This document shows positions 43,747 through 60,117 of a stretch of 64,000 nt of DNA, one piece after another (position 1 is the first letter of the stretch; every line of letters starts with the position of its first letter). The notes beneath the pieces are model-generated. The model searched no databases. It saw only the letters and a program-made list of their open reading frames with translations, and was not told the DNA's origin. The position numbers were made by a program, and so were the translations under genes. Source of the DNA: a virus; IMG/VR virus record IMGVR_UViG_3300045988_113151. One strand, 5' to 3'.

Positions 43747-43763
43747 AAAATATAGTTTTATAG

Positions 43764-43837
43764 TGATTCTATTGCGATTCGAACGCAAAACCTACACTTT
43801 AGAAGAGTGTTGCTCTATCCAATTGAGCTATAGAATC
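43764..43837 (-). tRNA. tRNA-Arg(TCT): tRNA-Arg (anticodon TCT)
   Basis: GATTCTA-TA-GCTC-AATTGGATA-GAGC-A-ACACT-CTTCTAA-AGTGT-AGGTT-TTGCG-TTCGAAT-CGCAA-TAGAATC-A. A full cloverleaf folded by hand. Confidence 0.85.
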
Positions 43838-45770: not shown

Positions 45771-46316
45771 TTATGGTTTCCGTACTAGTATTTCCACATC
45801 TCCTATTACTTCACCACTATTTAATATAACAGATGCTTGTTTTTGTGAAAAAGCAATTGTTTCAAGACCTTCATTTTTTCTAGTAGGTCTAGAACTAGAC
45901 ATATTTATATATTGGCTAGTATATTCTCCATCCATATTACCGCCATATCTTAGAACATCAAAAAGCATATCAATTACATATTCATAGTTATTATTCCGAA
46001 CAGCTTTATCCATAAAATCCTTAGTCATCCCATCAAACACAGGATTAGAATAATTACCATTTGGAACTGATATAACATCCATAATTGTTAATGCTAAATC
46101 ACGAAAACTTATATCTTTATAGTCACTAAACCATAAGCATAACCATTTAAATCGCCGTCTTTTAGTATAGAAACGAACTGATCCATCATCATGAATTTCT
46201 ATACTACCAACAACCTTATCACCCATCGTGATATGTTTATAGACATACTTATTATTTAGTATAAAACGTAATAAGTCTTTATGAACTTCACTAATTTTTA
46301 CTTCTGTGTTGTTCAT
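45771..46316 (-). CDS. hypothetical protein (181 aa)
   Basis: Standard-code ORF. Confidence 0.55.
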   Translation of the reverse strand: MNNTEVKISEVHKDLLRFILNNKYVYKHITMGDKVVGSIEIHDDGSVRFYTKRRRFKWLCLWFSDYKDISFRDLALTIMDVISVPNGNYSNPVFDGMTKDFMDKAVRNNNYEYVIDMLFDVLRYGGNMDGEYTSQYINMSSSRPTRKNEGLETIAFSQKQASVILNSGEVIGDVEILVRKP

Positions 46317-46327
46317 TTTTATTTATA

Positions 46328-46888
46328 TTAAAGTCCATATTGACGATAATATTCGTCACAGCTCTGCTGCTGACCTTTAATAAGTTCTTTAAGCATAGTC
46401 ATCTGTGCTAAGAAATCATTAGCAAGTGCCTCTGCCTTCTCTGCTTCCTGTTTGTTACGGAAATTAGCTTCATCTGTCAATCGTTTCCGATCGGCAAAGA
46501 ATAGCGGAGTCTGATTATTCTTAGCTCGAATACATGCTTCTTCAATTGCCGAATTATCTGTTGCTTCTGCAAAGAATTTCGGTTCTTGAACAATCTTAGC
46601 CCGTAATTCTGGCTTTTCGTTGAACTCAATGAAAATCTCATCATTAATAACAAGAAGTCGTTGAGATGACACAAGAACAGTGTTAACCATATATTTTAAT
46701 AGTGGTTCTACTAACCGTGGATGTTGATTAGTAAGTTCCTTCTCACGATGAGAAAGATCAACATTGTCAACTTGCAAATAACAGATAGTCTTACCTAAAA
46801 GGCTACCCATATTACTTACTACCTTACGAGCATCCCGTAAGCGTGCTTCAATTTTCTGTTCGTTTCCTTGATTATAATTATTTTCCAT
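46328..46888 (-). CDS. hypothetical protein (186 aa)
   Basis: Standard-code ORF. Confidence 0.55.
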   Translation of the reverse strand: MENNYNQGNEQKIEARLRDARKVVSNMGSLLGKTICYLQVDNVDLSHREKELTNQHPRLVEPLLKYMVNTVLVSSQRLLVINDEIFIEFNEKPELRAKIVQEPKFFAEATDNSAIEEACIRAKNNQTPLFFADRKRLTDEANFRNKQEAEKAEALANDFLAQMTMLKELIKGQQQSCDEYYRQYGL

Positions 46889-48938
46889 TTTGATAAAATT
46901 TTTATTTAATTGCAGAACCCATCGTTCCTAAGTAACACACTAGCAGTTCTCTTAATTCAGTATAATTAATAGGCGTCTTATATCCTATCGCTTTTAAAAA
47001 GCTTAGAAATAATTATAGTAAATCTCTAATTCAATAGATACTATACATATTACCATTATAAAAAATCTGATACAGTATGATAAAACTCGACATTTAATTC
47101 TTATTTACCTTCACTGATACTATTCTGATAACTTCTGCAATTAAGGTTGTTTGAAATTATTTGTTAATTCTCTGATATTTATTATCGTAGTTATATTCTA
47201 GAGCTCTTGGTAGAGGTGCATACAACAGGGACTCTAATGGTAAGAGATATATACCCCGTAAGATAATTGGTTTAGCTGATTATTTAAAGAGCCTAACAGT
47301 AAATACCTAAAAACGTGCTCTACTCATTTTTATCCATTCGTCAGTTGAGTGCTGGGTTTCTGATACTGTATATTATATCTACCGAGACAGGGTAGACCTT
47401 TTGTCGACATCAGCGCTGCCGGTTTTGTTATGAGCTGTTTATGTTTCAAAACACCCACTCTATAGCCTTGTATTACTCACAGGCTGCGTGTACTTACGAC
47501 TTTGTTCTTATCCTGCACATAATTCTAGGATTTCCACCTATCATCCCTTAATGGAGGGAATCAGTGTCACTTTACATATATTGTTGCGCAATATACTTTA
47601 AGTGGTTCTAGTGTTAGCAATTATATTGTACAGTCGAGGGTGGCTCGATATAGCTTTTAACTATACACTATACTACCATTGGACTTCCTCATTGCTTTAG
47701 TTGAACATGTTAATAATCTCACAAAAAGAAACCCTTACATATTAGACTTACTATCTACATTTAGTGTCAGTAAAGTGTAGCTGCTAAAATGGGGAATGCA
47801 CAGATTATACTCCGATCTGCTTCGTCCTCTAGGTTAAAATATTTCACGACTTTCCTTACTGGTTGTAAGGCTCAATGTTTTTAAATATACAACGTTATCT
47901 CAATGTTGCCAACTCGAATTTGATCAGGGAGTTATTTCTCCACTAGCTTTAGATTTTCTGTTTATACTAATTACTTCTAATCTATGATATAGAGTTTTCT
48001 GGCTCTTCATCCCATATCTACTTTATTTCCTAGTGCAAAGCACTTTAGGTTTATACTCATCTAAGTAGCAACTGAGTTTAATTATAATATTACTTAGTCC
48101 ACACAATCCCATTAAACTGAGAATTATTTCTTGCAAAATACTTTAATTATACTTCCGATTAGTTATTAAATATAACATTACATATAGGCTTTATACCTAA
48201 TCCAGTTAATCTATATTATATCCATCTTACTTACAACGTAAGTTCTATATAATGATCATAGCTACTCAGCCAAAAGGCATGTAATTTACTACTCACTTAT
48301 CATATAATTAAATAGTGCTATAATATTTATAATTCTACCTTCATACATACTGCTTTAAACATTCTTTCTTTAATGCACACTTCCAATTTAAGCTTTCCAA
48401 AGGCACGTGTCAGTATGGAACACTATAGTAGTATTTTTAGTAACTTTATAGCTACAAGGAAGATTTGGAGTCTACCTAGAATGCTTAACGATTCTATAAA
48501 TACATATCTACTAAAGTTTGGAGCTTTAGTACTTTCTTTATCCTCGCACTTTGCGAGTTTGCGACTCGTGTAAGGTAACATTCCCTTTTGATATTCAGTT
48601 TGATAACTGGTATTCGAATGTATTAACGATACCTGGCATTGTTTAACTTCATAAATCTGCTGATTTAATCGTTGCGTCTTTAGTCACCAATCGGTTCTCA
48701 CTGAGGATGTGCCACGCTCTTCCTCTTTCTCGTCATTTCTTCAGTCTTAAACAGTAAATTCGACATGATCAAGTTATTATACCTTCGTTCACTCAATAAT
48801 AGTGGTAGCTATTATTCCAGCCTCTAGTATTATGTACTGTTAATGCTTACTTTACTCAATTTCAGCATTCCTCTTCCTATTTGAATAGGAGCGTCTAGGC
48901 GAAGCAATTACGTTGCTAACGAATGCAGTTTATAGCTC
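46889..48938 (-). other. 2.05-kb ORF-free region (element X), candidate long structured RNA or regulatory region
   Basis: No minus-strand ORF of 60 aa or more. In the stretch I translated by hand (about 48360-48760) all three stop codons recur in every frame. The strand composition matches the minus-strand transcripts. Shares colinear motifs with 59171-60117. Confidence 0.5.
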
Positions 48939-49361
48939 TTATTTCGCGCTTTGCTGCTCTAGTTGCGCGTCAGTTTTATCTTCACTGATAATATTTACCT
49001 TACATGTGTTAAGGTCTAGAAATCCGACATAGTTAGTTCCTTTTACTAAGTCTATTGTTTTATGTTTGATATCATACGAAGATACAAACGAAATAGGGTC
49101 AAATACAGTAGCATCGAATTCATCTAATTTCTTAGATAGTTCTTCTACTCTATATTCTAACTTCTTAATAAGTAAACTAGATTGATTAAGTATCTCATTA
49201 ATTTGTTTGTTAAACTCATGAGATACTTTACCATCTTCTATGACAATTCTAGTAGCAGAAGAAGCTTTAGACAACTCTATTCTGCTGTTCTTTAAATTGC
49301 GAATAACTTCTGAAGTACGAAGCATGTGTTGAACGACTAGTCTATTTCTCGTCATCTTCAT
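48939..49361 (-). CDS. hypothetical protein (140 aa)
   Basis: Standard-code ORF. Confidence 0.55.
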   Translation of the reverse strand: MKMTRNRLVVQHMLRTSEVIRNLKNSRIELSKASSATRIVIEDGKVSHEFNKQINEILNQSSLLIKKLEYRVEELSKKLDEFDATVFDPISFVSSYDIKHKTIDLVKGTNYVGFLDLNTCKVNIISEDKTDAQLEQQSAK

Positions 49362-54067: not shown

Positions 54068-54141
54068 TTCACGGAGCAGGATTCGAACCTGCACTCATTT
54101 CCCATATCCGTTCTGTGTCTAACCAATTGCACCATCCGTGA
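54068..54141 (-). ncRNA. 74-nt tRNA-like element without an anticodon stem
   Basis: TCACGGA/TCCGTGA acceptor stem, D arm GTG-AATTGGTTAGA-CAC, T arm GCAGG-TTCGAAT-CCTGC. The 22 nt in the anticodon-arm position (AGAACGGATATGGGAAATGAGT) cannot form a stem. Confidence 0.5.
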
Positions 54142-54142
54142 C

Positions 54143-54283
54143 CTGCTTTTTACGACATTAGCTTAGCCGTTGACTTATCGTATTACGCTGCAATACGAGT
54201 ATAGTCTGTTACAAAAGATTTGTCATTTCTGACGTCTATTGACCTATTCATTTTCATCCTCGCTGTCAAATCCATAATACCCC
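54143..54283 (-). ncRNA. ssrA: tmRNA-like gene, coding piece (5' acceptor strand, tag frame); 3' end approximate
   Basis: GGGGTATTATGGATTTGACAGCGAGG (54283-54258) matches the tmRNA 5' consensus. AATAGACGTC is followed by AGA AAT GAC ... ATT GCA GCG TAA (stop 54183-54185) inside the hairpin 54197-54179. Confidence 0.6.
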
Positions 54284-54382
54284 ATTAGTAGGATTTTCAC
54301 CTACTTTGAAGCTTTGCGACATTTAGTCTAGGAGTGGTTTATACCCTTGCCAAGAGGAATCGAACCTCTATGCTTCTGACCG

Positions 54383-54445
54383 TGGAGTATGAGGGAGTCG
54401 AACCCTCGTCCAAACGATTCATCCAATGACCTAACAGTCAATATA
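54383..54445 (-). ncRNA. ssrA: tmRNA-like gene, acceptor piece (T arm and 3' acceptor strand); 5' end approximate
   Basis: GGAC-GAGGG-TTCGACT-CCCTC-ATACTCC-A (54411-54383). ATACTCC pairs with GGGGTAT at 54283-54277, with G3:U70 and A73. Confidence 0.6.
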
Positions 54446-54997
54446 GTAGTATATAGTTAAATCAATAACTATATACTTAAATATGAATAAACTGTAGGTA
54501 AGTATAATAAAAATAATAATCGGAAATATACTTTAAATACAGAGGCAGATAACTTACTATATGTTTAAAGATTTACTTCTATATCTAAGAGTAGCATCAA
54601 CTATTACTTTATTATAGGCTCTAGGCTCGCTTACTCTACAGTTTTAAATAGGCTTTGATTGCATGTATAGTATAGCAAGTGCTCATGTAAAACAGACTCG
54701 ATTGAACTATAGGCATAAAGCTCTCTATACATATACAATTTGATTTTGTGTACTGTTTATCGTCATAAGACTATTCATAGTACAAACTTCGCCAGTTTTA
54801 TACCCTCGTGGCTTATAGCTCTTGAGTTTAGAACGATCTTTAGGCTCATGATCAGTGGCACGTTTTTTACCCAGCAAAATGGGTCAAGCCTCTATTGCTT
54901 GTTGTCAATTCAACTGTGTACAACATCCTGCATCAAAAGACGACTTATCATGTTCTATGTACAGATTTGTCATAAAGACTTCTTCTTGGGTTGTCGA

Positions 54998-55612: not shown

Positions 55613-55876
55613 AGACTTTTAAATTTAAGAGAGTTATCTGTCTATTCGTACGTCTTATTCAACAGAAGCCCTTTTCCTTCTCCTGACCTATTACTAGGTT
55701 GACCGTTGTATAGTCCGTAGTACTCTATCTGTTAAGATTCCTTTAGGGGTTTGGCTTTATAACTCTCTAGGCTTAACTTCACCATAACTTAATAATTAAG
55801 TTAAAAACAAATTATCTGGCATGATAATATTAGTTGTTATAATAAATATTACTTTATTACTACACGCATGGAGATT

Positions 55877-55999
55877 TTACCTTCCACGTTTATAAGGCTC
55901 TAATTTCTTATGCCTTATTTTCTTTTTAGATTGATACTCGTAAGCTTTTTCAGATTGCTTAGATCCTGGAAAATGAGATTCCTTGTAAGTCTTTCCCAT
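55877..55999 (-). CDS. small basic ORF (40 aa)
   Basis: MGKTYKESHFPGSKQSEKAYEYQSKKKIRHKKLEPYKRGR. The ATG lies 1 nt after the upstream TAA. Confidence 0.3.
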   Translation of the reverse strand: MGKTYKESHFPGSKQSEKAYEYQSKKKIRHKKLEPYKRGR

Positions 56000-56000
56000 A

Positions 56001-56381
56001 TTACATATCCATTATATAATACATTTTAGCTGCTAACTCTGGTATATAACTAGCTTTGATATTAGTTAGATAACTAAGATCAGATGTACTAGGTGTCATT
56101 AATATACGCAAAGCTTCTTTGTTATTAGTACTAATAATAGATGCTTTCAAATAGTCTTTAAACTTACTAGAACTTGGATGATATCCGGATTTAGCTTCAA
56201 ATTGTTTAACAAGTTTAACAAATTCAGAATCTTTAGCATTTAATCTTTCTTGAGATGCATCTTCCTCTGACAATAATACAGGTTTAGTATTAAAACCAAT
56301 TTGTTCAGAGAATTTAACCATAGCATTTTTAATACTTGATTCACTTACCTCATTAGGTATGCATATTACGACTACTTTCAT
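56001..56381 (-). CDS. hypothetical protein (126 aa)
   Basis: Standard-code ORF. Confidence 0.5.
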   Translation of the reverse strand: MKVVVICIPNEVSESSIKNAMVKFSEQIGFNTKPVLLSEEDASQERLNAKDSEFVKLVKQFEAKSGYHPSSSKFKDYLKASIISTNNKEALRILMTPSTSDLSYLTNIKASYIPELAAKMYYIMDM

Positions 56382-56391
56382 AATTTTGATA

Positions 56392-56652
56392 TTATTTAAT
56401 TTCAGTTAGTTTACTTTTTTTATTTGTATTACGACTGTTAACATCAGCGTATTTATCTCTATTGTGTATTTTACCACAACGAATACAGAAGACTCTATCT
56501 TCTCCATTTTCTGATGGAGAGATTCTAGTACCCCAGATATGACCATATTTAATACAGTCAATTCTTCTTAATTTCTCTATTTCTTCTAGAGTTGTTCTTT
56601 TGCTACACACGTTAGCTAATTTCATAAAGAACTTTGTTAAATATTTTCTCAT
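56392..56652 (-). CDS. hypothetical zinc-ribbon-like protein (86 aa)
   Basis: CIKYGH...CIRCGK. Confidence 0.5.
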   Translation of the reverse strand: MRKYLTKFFMKLANVCSKRTTLEEIEKLRRIDCIKYGHIWGTRISPSENGEDRVFCIRCGKIHNRDKYADVNSRNTNKKSKLTEIK

Positions 56653-57077
56653 TTACATATAAATTAATAGTTTAAAAGTTAATATTAATGATGGCGTCTC
56701 ATAGTTGCAGCTATGAGATTGTAATCAGTTTAATTGAAAAAGATTTAAAGTTGATACAGTATACTGCAATATACTTACCAGTTCTCCAATAGGATAGCTT
56801 TTGTTAATAGAGCGAACTATTTTACATTTTTGACTCTCACATATTTAAACACATGCAGAAAAGCTGTCAAACCAATCTTACTGTGTACATGATTTTAACG
56901 CCCGCACGATCATAAATACATTTAATCAATAGGTTATTTATAATTTGCATACGTATGTCTCACTAATTTTAATCAACTATCATAGTATTTACTTACGCCC
57001 CACATGTTTGTCATCTTCTGAAGGAGCTATATTCCTGTTTCTCAACTGTAATATAGCAAAGACAATTTTAAAATAAA
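56653..57077 (-). other. ORF-free element A, paralogous to 58723-59047
   Basis: Shares gccccacatgtttgtc (56997-57012) and tacatgattttaa (56886-56898) with element B. Hairpin TCTCATAG/CTATGAGA at 56697-56718. Confidence 0.5.
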
Positions 57078-57503
57078 CTAAAATGAAGATTTTAAAGAGT
57101 CGTTCTTTGGTTCAGGTATACTTGGTTTAGGCATACTGTCTGGTAAATATTGTTTTTGCACATCCATAGCATGTTTAATAATCTTATCATAGAACTCTTT
57201 ATTTGTAATATAAGTATTTACAATATCTTGAATAGATATTTGTGTTCCTTTTGTTACAAGTATTTGAGTAACTATTTGAGTAGGCATATCTAAGTATACA
57301 CTATCACAATAGCGATAAAATCTCATTTCTTCTCTTTCTTGCAATACTTCCTTTACAGAAGGAATGTATTCTTGTTCAATAGAATCCGTATCAGGGATAT
57401 CATTGATTGCTTGTGGTTTTTTCACACAGCTTGTTAGTATAGTTATTAACATAACTATTGCTAAAATAGCAAATAATTTTAAAGATTTAAATTTTTCTTT
57501 CAT
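57078..57503 (-). CDS. lipoprotein (141 aa)
   Basis: Signal peptide with lipobox (LITILTSC). TAG stop. Confidence 0.65.
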   Translation of the reverse strand: MKEKFKSLKLFAILAIVMLITILTSCVKKPQAINDIPDTDSIEQEYIPSVKEVLQEREEMRFYRYCDSVYLDMPTQIVTQILVTKGTQISIQDIVNTYITNKEFYDKIIKHAMDVQKQYLPDSMPKPSIPEPKNDSLKSSF

Positions 57504-57527
57504 TTTTGATAATGTTTTTAATTAATT

Positions 57528-57719
57528 TTACTGTAACATTGAATAGATTTCAGCAGCACTTTCTTTAACTTCTGCTATAACTACTTCTTCTTCGCCTAAA
57601 TTAGTATAAATATAAGTACAGTCTTCTCCATCACAAATAGATGAAATTATTTCTGTATTTATTACTGTATTACCTAGCGTTTCTGGATCAGCGTTAGTTA
57701 ATAATATAAATTTCTTCAT
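57528..57719 (-). CDS. hypothetical protein (63 aa)
   Basis: Standard-code ORF. Confidence 0.45.
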   Translation of the reverse strand: MKKFILLTNADPETLGNTVINTEIISSICDGEDCTYIYTNLGEEEVVIAEVKESAAEIYSMLQ

Positions 57720-57836
57720 TGTGGTATAATATTATAAATTATTACTAATAGTGATACTAATATATATAAACTAATCATAATAGTTTTATGATTGTCTATA
57801 AATTGTAACATTTTATCTAATAAGATGTCACAAATA

Positions 57837-58112
57837 TCAGGGTTTGAATCTGTCTTCATACTTCTCACTGTTTTTATTATCTAAATTGTGATTAGCAGAA
57901 GCTCCTAGTTCGTATATAAATCTAATTACGCAGAATATGCATAACGTGATTATAATAACACACCACCATTTGTAATAGTCATATAGACTACCATGCTTTA
58001 GCTCAAAGGCTAAACTTTCATCTAAAACTGCATCAATATTAGCTTTTAACCATAGTGTTACTATAGTAAGAGCTACTATAAATCCAGCTAAAAAATTGAT
58101 TAAACTTTTCAT
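57837..58112 (-). CDS. hypothetical membrane protein (91 aa)
   Basis: Two hydrophobic segments. Confidence 0.5.
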   Translation of the reverse strand: MKSLINFLAGFIVALTIVTLWLKANIDAVLDESLAFELKHGSLYDYYKWWCVIIITLCIFCVIRFIYELGASANHNLDNKNSEKYEDRFKP

Positions 58113-58333
58113 TCTTTAATTTGATTTAATAGTTGATTACTAGAATTCTTCCAATTAGAAAGTAATTCATTAAATTTATCTCTTAATTCTAACAATTGTT
58201 CTTTCTCTTCATCTGTTATACATTTATAATCAGATTCAAGAGTAATAAGTAAAGAAGATAGATTACATTTTAGACCAAATAATCTAAAATAAGTAAAATT
58301 CCTATACCTATTTAGCTTTGATTTCTTGTTCAT
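58109..58333 (-). CDS. hypothetical protein (74 aa)
   Basis: Standard-code ORF, overlaps both neighbours. Confidence 0.45.
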   Translation of the reverse strand: MNKKSKLNRYRNFTYFRLFGLKCNLSSLLITLESDYKCITDEEKEQLLELRDKFNELLSNWKNSSNQLLNQIKE

Positions 58334-58640
58334 ACTTTGCTATTTTATTATAAATTATATTCCAATAGTGAATACCTTTTATTGAATCTTTCCAAGAAAA
58401 AGTAGTTATTATATAAAATATTACATAATTACTTCTTTTTTTATATAGGTTGAGACCTCTATAATTATAATTACGAAAACTCATATTATAATGTATTACT
58501 TCGGAAACAAATTCACTCAAACAATTAAAATGAATTAAAGCGTGTAACAAGTTATATGACATGTTTGTCATAATGTGATGTCTCATATCCTGCTTAATTC
58601 GTTTTAAATCTTTGTCTGTATAATCTACAATATTTTCCAT
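58308..58640 (-). CDS. hypothetical protein (110 aa)
   Basis: Contains TFSWKDSIKGIHYWNII, related to 53771-54052. TAG stop. Confidence 0.5.
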   Translation of the reverse strand: MENIVDYTDKDLKRIKQDMRHHIMTNMSYNLLHALIHFNCLSEFVSEVIHYNMSFRNYNYRGLNLYKKRSNYVIFYIITTFSWKDSIKGIHYWNIIYNKIAKYEQEIKAK

Positions 58641-58722
58641 AATTACTTTTTAATAAGGAATACTAAGTTTTGATTTGTACAAATAGCAAGATGTGAATAC
58701 TTTCTAATAAATTTCTTTTTCA

Positions 58723-59047
58723 TATTGATTATGTTTTAATGGTTAGTAAATTCTAATAAAATGAAGATTGCTACTTTCACAAGCAACAACCTTCTATAAA
58801 CCAAATTTTAATAAAGAGAATGGCAAATGTAACTAACATCTGAGGACTAGGATACGCTAATCCCTATAAATGATGCAATTAAAAATAGCGAAGAGTTACT
58901 AACGTAGTACAATATAGTTTGCATCATACATGATTTTAAAGTCTGCACTAATGCTAGTTCAAGTGAGCTGTATAAATCAATATACATTTCAGACTAGACA
59001 TAAGCCCCACATGTTTGTCAAGGATTCTCACCTTAATAACTTATAGT
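58723..59047 (-). other. ORF-free element B, paralogous to 56653-57077
   Basis: gccccacatgtttgtc at 59004-59019 and tacatgattttaa at 58927-58939. Confidence 0.5.
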
Positions 59048-59170
59048 TTAATTACCATTAATAATGTAGAAGATATAACCTACAGCAAATAATGCTATAA
59101 GAACATAAATAATTGCAACTCCTACAAATGCAATTATTCTTTCAAATAAATCGTCATCGTCTTTTTTCAT
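59048..59170 (-). CDS. small membrane protein (40 aa)
   Basis: MKKDDDDLFERIIAFVGVAIIYVLIALFAVGYIFYIINGN, read by hand. Confidence 0.35.
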   Translation of the reverse strand: MKKDDDDLFERIIAFVGVAIIYVLIALFAVGYIFYIINGN

Positions 59171-60117
59171 AATTTAATAATTTTATAAATTTGCATTTTA
59201 CACCTAAAACTTATAAGGGTAATAGGACTCGAAATTAATCTATCCTAAAACTTTATTTATTACCTACTAAAAGAAGTAGAACTTATAAGAAACTGGTGTC
59301 CTCAATGTCTTGGAAGGTTATTGAGTTTTTTAAATATCTGTCTTTCCAGATCGCCAATATTAGTTTATACTCCTAATATTAGAGTTTACTATCTTTAATA
59401 CCTAGAATAAGATAGCAGATTGTTTAAAAGAATAGTATAATCTTCCAAAACTATACTATTCTTTTGTATTATCAACACTCACTATTACACACAGTAGCTA
59501 ATTGTGTTTATTTAGTGACTAGATTCATAGTGGAAATGATTCCTTATGAGAATCCTACTTACTAGCTAGACTCTTGCGCTCGATATTGACGTTGTGGCAA
59601 TCAACAACAATATTTTTCACAATCGAGGGTCTTATTTCTCGGCAACTCCTACTTAATTTAAATTTGAATATATTTATATATCCCAAGTAATCAACAGATA
59701 TTTGGAGCACTATTTTACATCATTGTTTTCACGCTGATTGCTCGTTTTTGATCTTTTAATCAATATATACTTGATCAGTATGTATATATCTATGCTTCTT
59801 ACTTTCTGAGCGAGTTTGCGATTCTCAGATTTCATATTTTCTATTACCACGCATTGGCTAATTAGAAGAGCCTTAATTAAATTAAAATAACATAACTTGC
59901 ACAGTTTGTTTAGTTATGACTAACCAGCCTGTGACTAACTTCTGGTTAGTCTTAATTTAATTACTAGTCTTTACAGCGCTAGCTCTCTGTTTAGTTATTA
60001 TAAAGATAATTAAATTAGAAAAAATTGCTATAATGATGACTCAATTGTAGTGATATGCAGAAGCGATGGACACTTTCATGTCCACGCTCTGATTGACGAA
60101 TAAGCTATATATTAGTA
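59171..60117 (-). other. 0.95-kb ORF-free region (element Y), shorter paralogue of element X
   Basis: Three motifs occur colinear with X: agggtcttatttctc 59626-59640, gcgagtttgcga 59810-59821, ccacgctct 60082-60090. 10-bp hairpin at 59431-59462. Confidence 0.5.

Follow-up and report, generated by a model that had tools for sequence, protein, structure and literature searches.

The 64,000-nucleotide virus record IMGVR_UViG_3300045988_113151, called the window below, represents a crAss-like phage of the family Suoliviridae whose nearest named genome is cr6_1 (Bearivirinae). Within its tightly packed genes lies an island of 2,050 nucleotides (nt), X (46889-48938), bounded exactly by the stop codon of the open reading frame (ORF) at 48939-49361 (minus strand) and the start of the ORF at 46328-46888 (minus strand). 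Sequence comparison indicates that X is very probably a gene for a structured noncoding RNA (ncRNA), and the explanation that best accounts for all observations is likely to be a very large, highly structured, minus-strand ncRNA with a core of about 1.4 kb, found in syntenic position throughout the family. An original prediction made from the window alone had listed a large structured RNA as its first candidate for X, and conservation, covariation, and strand asymmetry now strongly support that candidate.

X is conserved and syntenic throughout Suoliviridae

A gap of 1.9 to 2.3 kb without credible ORFs was found at the same location in every Suoliviridae genome examined and in all five subfamilies, namely, Bearivirinae (cr6_1), Uncouvirinae (cr114_1, cr115_1, and cr118_1), Loutivirinae (cr52_1, cr4_1, cr56_1, cr109_1, cr113_1, cr53_1, and cr60_1), Boorivirinae (cr10_1), and Oafivirinae (cr130_1 from macaque, cr7_1, cr273_1 from pig, and Bohxovirus from the human airway). 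It was also present in the unclassified Dulem virus 42, a lemur virus, and at 44 IMG/VR loci. The hosts of gap-bearing phages comprise human, macaque, pig, rabbit, and lemur; as for bacteria, PMC12697116 points to Prevotella or Segatella for Bohxovirus. The gene order at the locus runs from a gene of about 500 amino acids (aa) through one or two genes of about 130 to 150 aa to the gap, which is followed by a gene of about 186 to 210 aa, a gene of about 180 aa and, further on, the DNA polymerase. A phage gene for an ECF sigma factor lies about 3 kb upstream of the gap, and X is part of the replication/middle gene block.

X and the syntenic gap of cr6_1 share about 65% nucleotide identity across some 1.56 kb. 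The homologous core occupies 47430-48841 on the minus strand (about 1,412 nt), and an nhmmer profile made without the lineage of the window matched it from 48841 to 47430 with an E value of 1.2e-115. Among 23 representatives of six deep lineages, the core is 1,383 to 1,591 nt long and 47 to 66% identical at the nucleotide level, whereas the neighboring 515-aa protein shows just 22 to 29% amino acid identity between the same lineages, and the downstream protein (46328-46888) shows 20 to 30%. Likewise, the gaps of cr56_1 and cr109_1 are 89% identical, compared to 78% and 54% for the flanking genes. Since identity is higher in the gap and its core than in the neighboring genes, the RNA region is under stronger constraint than the surrounding proteins. 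The conservation and synteny of X across the family are beyond chance.

The whole profile was matched by 109 of 142 new metagenome and genome loci, nearly all of them over its full length, and the partial matches that were inspected were truncated by the end of the locus. A three-block DNA pattern taken from the 3' domain of the RNA matched at least 120 loci in IMG/VR and at least 119 in metagenomes; a first pattern, GAGCGTGN{5,30}TGAGAACC, was too unspecific, and the loci that it retrieved (L047 to L166) are mostly chance matches. With well over 200 loci found, nearly all of them true, the three-block pattern represents a sensitive nucleotide marker for Suoliviridae. It also gave eight true matches in GTDB metagenome-assembled genomes filed as bacterial. 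The RNA-bearing GTDB contigs (L292, L295, L297, L298, L302, L304, L307, and L309) stand under the labels Bacilli, Sphaerochaeta, Clostridium, Thauera, and others; four of them, L298, L302, L304, and L307, of about 100 kb each, are crAss-like phage genomes, and the presence of RNA-bearing contigs in species-representative GTDB genomes looks like binning contamination.

X does not encode a protein

TAA, TAG, and TGA each occur at least four times in each of the six frames of X. Read with the standard code, no stretch stays open for more than 86 codons; reassigning any one stop codon extends this to 119 codons at most, and no single reassignment opens a coding frame in any of the six frames. The patterns of substitution and insertion or deletion (indel) add to these stop counts. 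Substitutions in X between close relatives had no 3-base periodicity (p = 0.44 to 0.98), while those in the flanking genes were strongly 3-periodic (p = 0.0014 to 2e-25 among pairs); for the window and its close relative L011, the values were 7e-16 and 0.0014 for the flanking genes and 0.44 for X. Close pairs are separated by 17 to 23 indels in X, nearly all of 1 or 2 nt, and 22 of the 23 between the window and L011 are not multiples of 3, compared to zero indels in the flanking genes of the window/L011 and cr109_1/cr60_1 pairs. Finally, ORFs of at least 40 aa within X are not the same between close relatives, and L011 has none. We conclude that X is noncoding. The original prediction was therefore correct in finding no plausible coding frame, and the six-frame and alternative-code analysis that it had named as able to overturn its reading revealed no gene. 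Its remark that the sense (minus) strand is purine rich is confirmed as well, since both the GC and the AT skew of X are negative on the plus strand. No tRNA was detected in X by ARAGORN, and the idea of a tRNA array was dropped.

Several public annotations place ORFs on the RNA region: 7460-7930 of L001 (cr6_1 gp60), 3795-4232 of L170 and of L174, 12403-12885 of L435, 11366-11872 of L437, and 11040-13048 of L438. One of these is a coding sequence that reads past its stop codon into the RNA, and the rest are small and mostly on the opposite strand; all are probably spurious calls.

Compensatory changes support a fold of the minus strand

The conservation pattern of the core is one of invariant, apparently single-stranded blocks that alternate with variable hairpins. 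The invariant blocks include UGAGAACCG, UAGUGUU, CUCCAAA, GGAAGUYCAAUG, CACCC, CGCUGA, and UGGAAAU. RNAalifold was run on the 23 representatives, and covarying pairs were counted at no more than 10% noncanonical cells. The sense strand gave -168.8 kcal/mol and 165 pairs, 51 of them covarying, and thus a better energy than the antisense strand, with -147.4 kcal/mol and 143 pairs (41 covarying). Column-shuffled controls reached only -10 to -19 kcal/mol, with 26 to 43 pairs and 1 to 3 covarying ones.

Pair counts for the separate domains point the same way. In the 5' domain (alignment A2), 99.0% of the cells were paired, compared to 82.4% after shuffling and 34 to 50% when the partner was slid, and the covariation score was 0.503 versus 0.175. 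In the 3' domain (alignment A3), 93.8% were paired, compared to 79.2% and 34 to 48%, respectively, and two-sided changes occurred in 24 pairs versus 15.9 ± 1.8, a number that none of 500 shuffles reached. The observed percentages of paired cells and covariation scores, including those from the covariance model (CM) alignment described below, were likewise matched by 0 of 500 shuffles.

R1, a CM of 208 positions, was made for the 5' domain from the first 23 sequences. This model gave exactly one full-length match, at the head of the gap, in each of 11 nonseed genomes, including those of the divergent Boorivirinae, Oafivirinae, and Besingivirus. In seven nonseed genomes aligned to R1, the helices persisted with new compensatory pairs (97.5% paired versus 78.0%). 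This domain also contains a pseudoknot, and the middle pair of the pseudoknot takes all four Watson-Crick forms across lineages (C:G, A:U, G:C, and U:A). Since R1 does not include the pseudoknot, aligning sequences to the model tests this pairing without bias.

The predicted pairs comprise 404 G·U cells but 72 A·C cells, an excess that fits the folding of a minus-strand transcript and does not fit a signal in duplex DNA. Taken together, the compensatory hairpins, the H-type pseudoknot, the invariant single-stranded motifs, which are distributed over the full length, and the tolerance of G·U but not of A·C show selection on the fold of one strand. X thus combines statistically supported compensatory changes on one strand with the lack of a coding signal, as expected in general for a structured ncRNA.

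Parts of the RNA locus

All parts described here lie on the minus strand and are given from 5' to 3' of the RNA. Directly after the stop codon of the upstream gene lies a weak, putative promoter-like motif, AAUAAGAGCUAUAA (48930-48943). Its exact 11-mer AAGAGCTATAA has two minus-strand copies in the window and none on the plus strand; the first stands at the head of X (48930-48940) and the second at 54813-54823, about 340 nt upstream of a tmRNA-like gene. A related TATA..CTATAA motif opens the gap in other lineages. AAGAGCTATAA may be a phage promoter for RNA genes. The Bacteroides -7 motif TAnnTTTG was not found at the head of the gap, and a scan for sigma-70 promoters and intrinsic terminators, which is uninformative for a phage of Bacteroidota, returned chance-level counts. 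Between the promoter-like motif and the core lies a lineage-variable 5' leader (48842-48929) with low conservation between lineages.

The core itself (47430-48841), as delimited by nhmmer, begins with the 5' domain covered by R1 (48639-48841). Here, helix Ha (48827-48830:48779-48782) encloses hairpin Hb (48809-48812:48799-48802), and this element (48779-48830) is supported by two-sided changes, the third pair of Ha being C:G, A:U, or G:C in the seed alignment and, additionally, U:A in the CM alignment. Hairpin Hc (48703-48725) pairs GAGGA (48721-48725) with UCCUC (48703-48707) around the conserved loop AGAGCGUG; 99 to 100% of its cells are paired, and four of its five pairs covary in the seed alignment and all five in the CM alignment. 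The H-type pseudoknot (48674-48717) is formed by GCGU of this loop (48714-48717) with ACGC (48674-48677) and spans the invariant UGAGAACCG (48692-48700).

Further downstream, module F (48249-48299) is an element of about 40 nt (GGCUGAGUAGCWAUGAUC) that contains GGCUGAGUAGCUAUGAUC (48254-48271) and whose place in the motif order varies by lineage. Relative to block G (CUGGAUUAGGUG; 48195-48205), it lies 5' in the phage of the window, Uncouvirinae, and Loutivirinae and 3' in cr6_1 and L013. Degenerate second copies of module F suggest two paralogous hairpins that were differentially kept, that is, a natural local rearrangement within the RNA. Four central helices follow within 47985-48199, at 48195-48199:48185-48189, 48178-48184:48139-48145, 48075-48082:48055-48062, and 48003-48012:47985-47994; each has three or four covarying pairs, and a scan for stacks of covarying pairs that was blind to structure found three of the four again.

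The 3' domain, for which the pair counts of alignment A3 were made, covers 47419-47714. It contains a covarying helix (47637-47689) between the invariant motif GGGAAGUYCAAUG (47683-47689) and CACCC (47637-47641), in which NGG:CCN' was seen as AGG:CCU, GGG:CCC, and UGG:CCA among 116 sequences. It also contains an 8-bp hairpin with a conserved YGCAA loop (47576-47596), all eight pairs of which covary, and a hairpin with the invariant 7-nt loop UGGAAAU (47526-47540), in which three of four stem pairs covary and 97.8% of the cells are paired. This loop may be T-loop-like. The core ends with a further hairpin with covarying pairs (47430-47458). The remaining 3' tail or spacer (46889-47429) is lineage specific and conserved among close relatives only, and the nhmmer match stops at 47430; possible identities are a 3' domain of variable sequence, the region of a terminator, or the promoter and 5' untranslated region (5'UTR) of the next gene.

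Of the two hairpins singled out in the original prediction, CTCGCA-ctt-TGCGAG is present at 48543-48557 as stated, and TCGAG-ggtgg-CTCGA exists as well, at 47634-47648, 2 nt from the position first given. Two other candidates were rejected. A terminal closing helix made of inverted repeat I9 (48831-48842 paired with 47294-47305) lacks conservation, and duplex energies in other lineages did not surpass those of shuffled controls. A likeness of AAGUCGUAA to the 3' end of 16S rRNA occurs only in the lineages of the window and cr6_1 and was judged coincidental.

X resembles GOLLD and ROOL in character but not by homology

A scan of X with Rfam 15 returned no family even at an E value of ≤10 with permissive filters; the negatives include GOLLD, ROOL, OLE, HEARO, group I and II introns, RNase P, tmRNA, and the RAGATH RNAs. 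Nor did any Rfam family match the homologous gaps of nine other genomes. No description of the region was found in the literature, the coverage of which was incomplete, so that this is absence of evidence only. No source was found in PMC7886860 (Yutin 2021) or the review PMC10136315 for the statement in the original prediction that large noncoding regions are known from some crAss-like lineages.

The closest analogues are GOLLD and ROOL, both of which are large, phage-encoded RNAs that form RNA-only cages or nanocages (PMC12286853). GOLLD, many members of which exceed 800 nt, is described as the largest of three ornate RNAs studied by cryo-electron microscopy (cryo-EM) and as induced during phage lysis; ROOL (rumen-originating, ornate, large) is phage borne, has several pseudoknots, no known protein partner, and an unknown function, and forms RNA-only cages (PMC12286853). 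The X RNA resembles GOLLD in being encoded by phages or prophages, very large, multidomain, and pseudoknotted, in combining a conserved part with variable parts, and in its unknown function. It differs in that no CM match was obtained at the gathering score in the window or at an E value of ≤10 in X, in that its core of about 1.4 to 1.6 kb has nearly twice the length of GOLLD, and in that it belongs to Crassvirales, whose hosts are Bacteroidota, and keeps to one fixed syntenic site. GOLLD lies next to or within tRNA islands of phages or prophages; near X, a single tRNA (43763-43837) lies two genes downstream, as it does in cr4_1 and cr115_1, and there is no tRNA island there. With ROOL, the X RNA shares the association with gut or rumen, the phage-borne location, and a complex fold, but it does not match the ROOL model and has no detectable motifs in common with it. 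The likeness to both is thus one of character, not of homology, and X belongs to neither family. We rate the X RNA as a new class among the large ornate phage-encoded ncRNAs of unknown function.

Proposed role

In the mechanism that we propose, the X RNA would be transcribed from its own promoter-like element just past the upstream stop codon, during the middle phase of infection, and would act in trans as a folded RNA rather than as an mRNA, a DNA site, or a leader. It might self-assemble, or form a ribonucleoprotein with phage or host proteins, like the phage-borne GOLLD and ROOL. By analogy with these RNAs, an architectural or scaffolding function can be tentatively suggested. A role as a decoy or sponge RNA, which was also among the early candidates, is conceivable.

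We consider it improbable that the core of about 1.4 to 1.6 kb is one RNA of about the length of 16S rRNA that works as an active machine, be it a ribozyme or a ribosome-interacting RNA, and reprograms host gene expression. A concrete case would be the possibility that the X RNA supports TAG read-through in late genes. The late block of the window (1-31250, plus strand) is TAG recoded: reading TAG through raises its coding coverage from 44% to 78%, and ORFs of 4,409, 1,470, and 1,407 aa exist only under this condition. The minus-strand block that holds X uses the standard code. No CUA suppressor tRNA is present in the 64-kb window, where the only clean tRNA is the one downstream of X, Arg(TCT), and the TAG-recoded phages of this family often lack such tRNAs; how they then decode TAG is acknowledged to be unsolved (PMC10136315; bioRxiv 10.64898/2026.08.21.746148). 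The apparent presence of the RNA in the whole family argues against its strict association with recoded genomes that lack a suppressor.

Several observations weigh against a single large scaffolding RNA as proposed. The structure-blind scan for stacked pairs found no covariation-supported helix spanning more than about 120 nt and gave only ambiguous long-range candidates; the pairings 514-521:1370-1377, 239-243:1383-1387, and 845-848:1304-1307 (sense numbering) link invariant motifs and are therefore without covariation. Because no long-range helix covaries, the folding of the 1.4 kb as a single molecule is a candidate reading. Near matches to AAGAGCTATAA with one mismatch occur at chance frequency, so that the promoter-like motif is weak evidence; the intrinsic terminator scan found no terminator on the sense strand. 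The neighboring proteins, as detailed below, yield no functional hint from Pfam, PHROG, or fold searches, and the putative scaffold mechanism is drawn from the GOLLD/ROOL analogy.

Alternative explanations

The lack of long covarying helices is also what would be expected if X were a co-transcribed string of smaller independent structured RNAs that are processed apart, a possibility that deserves to be taken seriously even if we doubt it. The shifting position of module F between lineages fits such a string, as do the many small RNAs in the same phage block (the RAGATH/Hatchet/tmRNA-like cluster at 54 to 60 kb) and the fact that Oafivirinae and Boorivirinae have kept some RNA domains far better than others. 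On the other hand, each genome with a complete locus has the full set of domains, collinear and in one block, and the length of the core stays within the range given above. Moreover, neither self-cleaving ribozymes nor other Rfam families occur within X, the promoter-like motif was not seen again inside it, and distant invariant motifs are complementary to each other. One large RNA thus remains our preferred reading.

That the X RNA is catalytic, either as a new large ribozyme or as an unrecognized self-splicing or mobile intron-like element without an ORF, seems unlikely. Like typical large ribozymes, it is of great size and combines invariant single-stranded motifs with a pseudoknot and a T-loop-like loop; group II introns, RNase P, and group I introns, of comparable or smaller size, are likewise multidomain RNAs with invariant junction motifs and modules of the T-loop and tetraloop types. 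In addition, delta-group crAss-like phages abound in group I introns (PMC7886860), and the window has Hatchet ribozymes. However, no group I, group II, RNase P, or ribozyme model matched X at an E value of ≤10, including Intron_gpI, Intron_gpII, and group-II-D1D4. Furthermore, X lies outside genes, between two complete ones with their own conserved starts and their own stops, has no intron-encoded protein, and occurs as one copy per genome at a fixed syntenic site, which is a nonmobile pattern.

It is about as unlikely that X is a cis-acting leader, that is, a very long structured 5'UTR controlling the genes at 46328-46888 and 45771-46316. Conserved syntenic genes of the same strand do follow X directly, and the scan for terminators gave none in the interval from the core to the next gene. 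Nevertheless, 1.4 kb of conserved structure far exceeds any known bacterial leader, a poorly conserved spacer of about 540 nt separates the core from the gene, and the genes that would be under its control are far less conserved than the RNA.

A DNA-level element such as a replication origin, a packaging site, or another protein-binding region, which the original prediction had also put forward, is very unlikely. A large noncoding region that lies among the replication genes and close to the DNA polymerase would suit such an element, but X had no iterons or tandem repeats, its dispersed repeats were at chance level, and no GC-skew inflection was seen. Its GC content (33 to 34%) is not below the genome average, and X thus displays none of the repeats, AT-rich unwinding element, or skew switch of a replication origin. 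Compensatory pairing within one strand and the excess of G·U over A·C are also unexpected from a duplex-DNA site. Finally, a degraded, intron-split, or alternatively coded protein gene can be dismissed with near certainty: the phage does recode TAG in late genes, and some database records do call small ORFs in the gap, but the frequent stops in all frames, the lack of codon periodicity, the frameshifting indels, and the inconsistent ORFs described above speak against it, and about 2 kb have been kept across the whole family, unlike in a decaying pseudogene.

Island Y and the other RNA genes of the phage

X had originally been described as homologous to a second island, Y (59171-60117), with three motifs recurring in the same order. 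This homology found no support in BLASTN, word shuffles, nhmmer, or CM searches. The best BLASTN match between X and Y had an E value of 0.04 and lay on the opposite strand, the nhmmer profile of the element found nothing in Y at an E value of ≤10, and the 5'-domain covariance model, with filters off, found a single copy in the window and none in Y. The three motifs do sit in X at 47926-47940, 48553-48564, and 48712-48720; however, the first, a 15-mer, has no exact copy in Y (best, 13 of 15 positions), and the 12-mer and 9-mer recur exactly but at chance level. X and Y share 36 9-mers compared to 26 ± 7 expected, and when the dinucleotides of Y were shuffled, 188 of 500 shuffles had a word of 12 nt or longer in common with X. 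Since AT-rich sequence gives such words by chance, the shared 12-mer is unremarkable. What Y does hold is a RAGATH-14 RNA (RF03145; 59414-59650, 169 bits), for which X had no match at an E value of ≤10.

The RAGATH-14 RNA closes a cluster of RNA genes on the minus strand (55627-59650) that also comprises a RAGATH-9 RNA (RF03146; 55627-55780) and two Hatchet ribozymes (RF02678; 56887-57025 and 58928-59040). Like X, these are structured RNAs that the minus strand of the early/middle block encodes, but they measure only 110 to 240 nt, X matches none of them, and no profile or CM match joins X and Y. The same block of other Suoliviridae carries Hatchet, RAGATH-9, and RAGATH-1 hammerhead RNAs (L432, L434, and L435). 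The early/middle region of Suoliviridae is unusually rich in RNA genes.

A permuted, two-piece tmRNA-like gene lies at 54068-54472 (minus strand). It scored 48.5 bits with the Rfam model tmRNA_permuted, and ARAGORN called a permuted tmRNA with the tag VRNDKSFVTDYTRIAA*. The adjoining tRNA-like element (54068-54141) has good acceptor and T arms and an unpaired anticodon arm. In cr10_1, cr130_1, cr7_1, and cr273_1, a feature in syntenic position carries the annotation tmRNA. At the other end of the window, an RT-3 RNA motif (RF03068; 247-368, plus strand, 47.7 bits) stands at the start of a 435-aa TAG-containing ORF (117-1424); this motif family was named after its association with reverse transcriptases.

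Genes flanking X

Both genes that flank X are ORFans and are syntenic in all lineages. The upstream gene (48939-49361, minus strand) encodes 140 aa and has codon-periodic substitutions, and the downstream gene (46328-46888, minus strand) encodes 186 aa. Searches of Pfam and PHROG gave no family for 8 of 10 neighboring proteins, both of these among them; the remaining two are the ECF sigma factor and a protein with a subthreshold match to DUF2162. An AlphaFold model of the 186-aa protein (pLDDT, 73.7) had no fold match in the PDB (best E value, 0.6).

Implications

Suoliviridae, the delta group of crAss-like phages, made up the largest group when the human-gut crAss-virome was surveyed (PMC7886860) and have no cultured member (PMC10136315). 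Several of their public records carry probably spurious ORFs or a read-through coding sequence over the X RNA, which is an annotation issue. If it is a single molecule, the X RNA would be about twice the size of GOLLD, and a single RNA of about 1.4 to 1.6 kb would be by far the largest nonribosomal structured RNA class known from bacteria or their viruses. Given the RNA-only nanocages of GOLLD and ROOL, it would then be an obvious target for cryo-EM and chemical probing. About 2% of every Suoliviridae genome is given to one RNA that is more constrained than the neighboring proteins, and because of this share of the genome and this stronger constraint, the RNA must matter to the phage.

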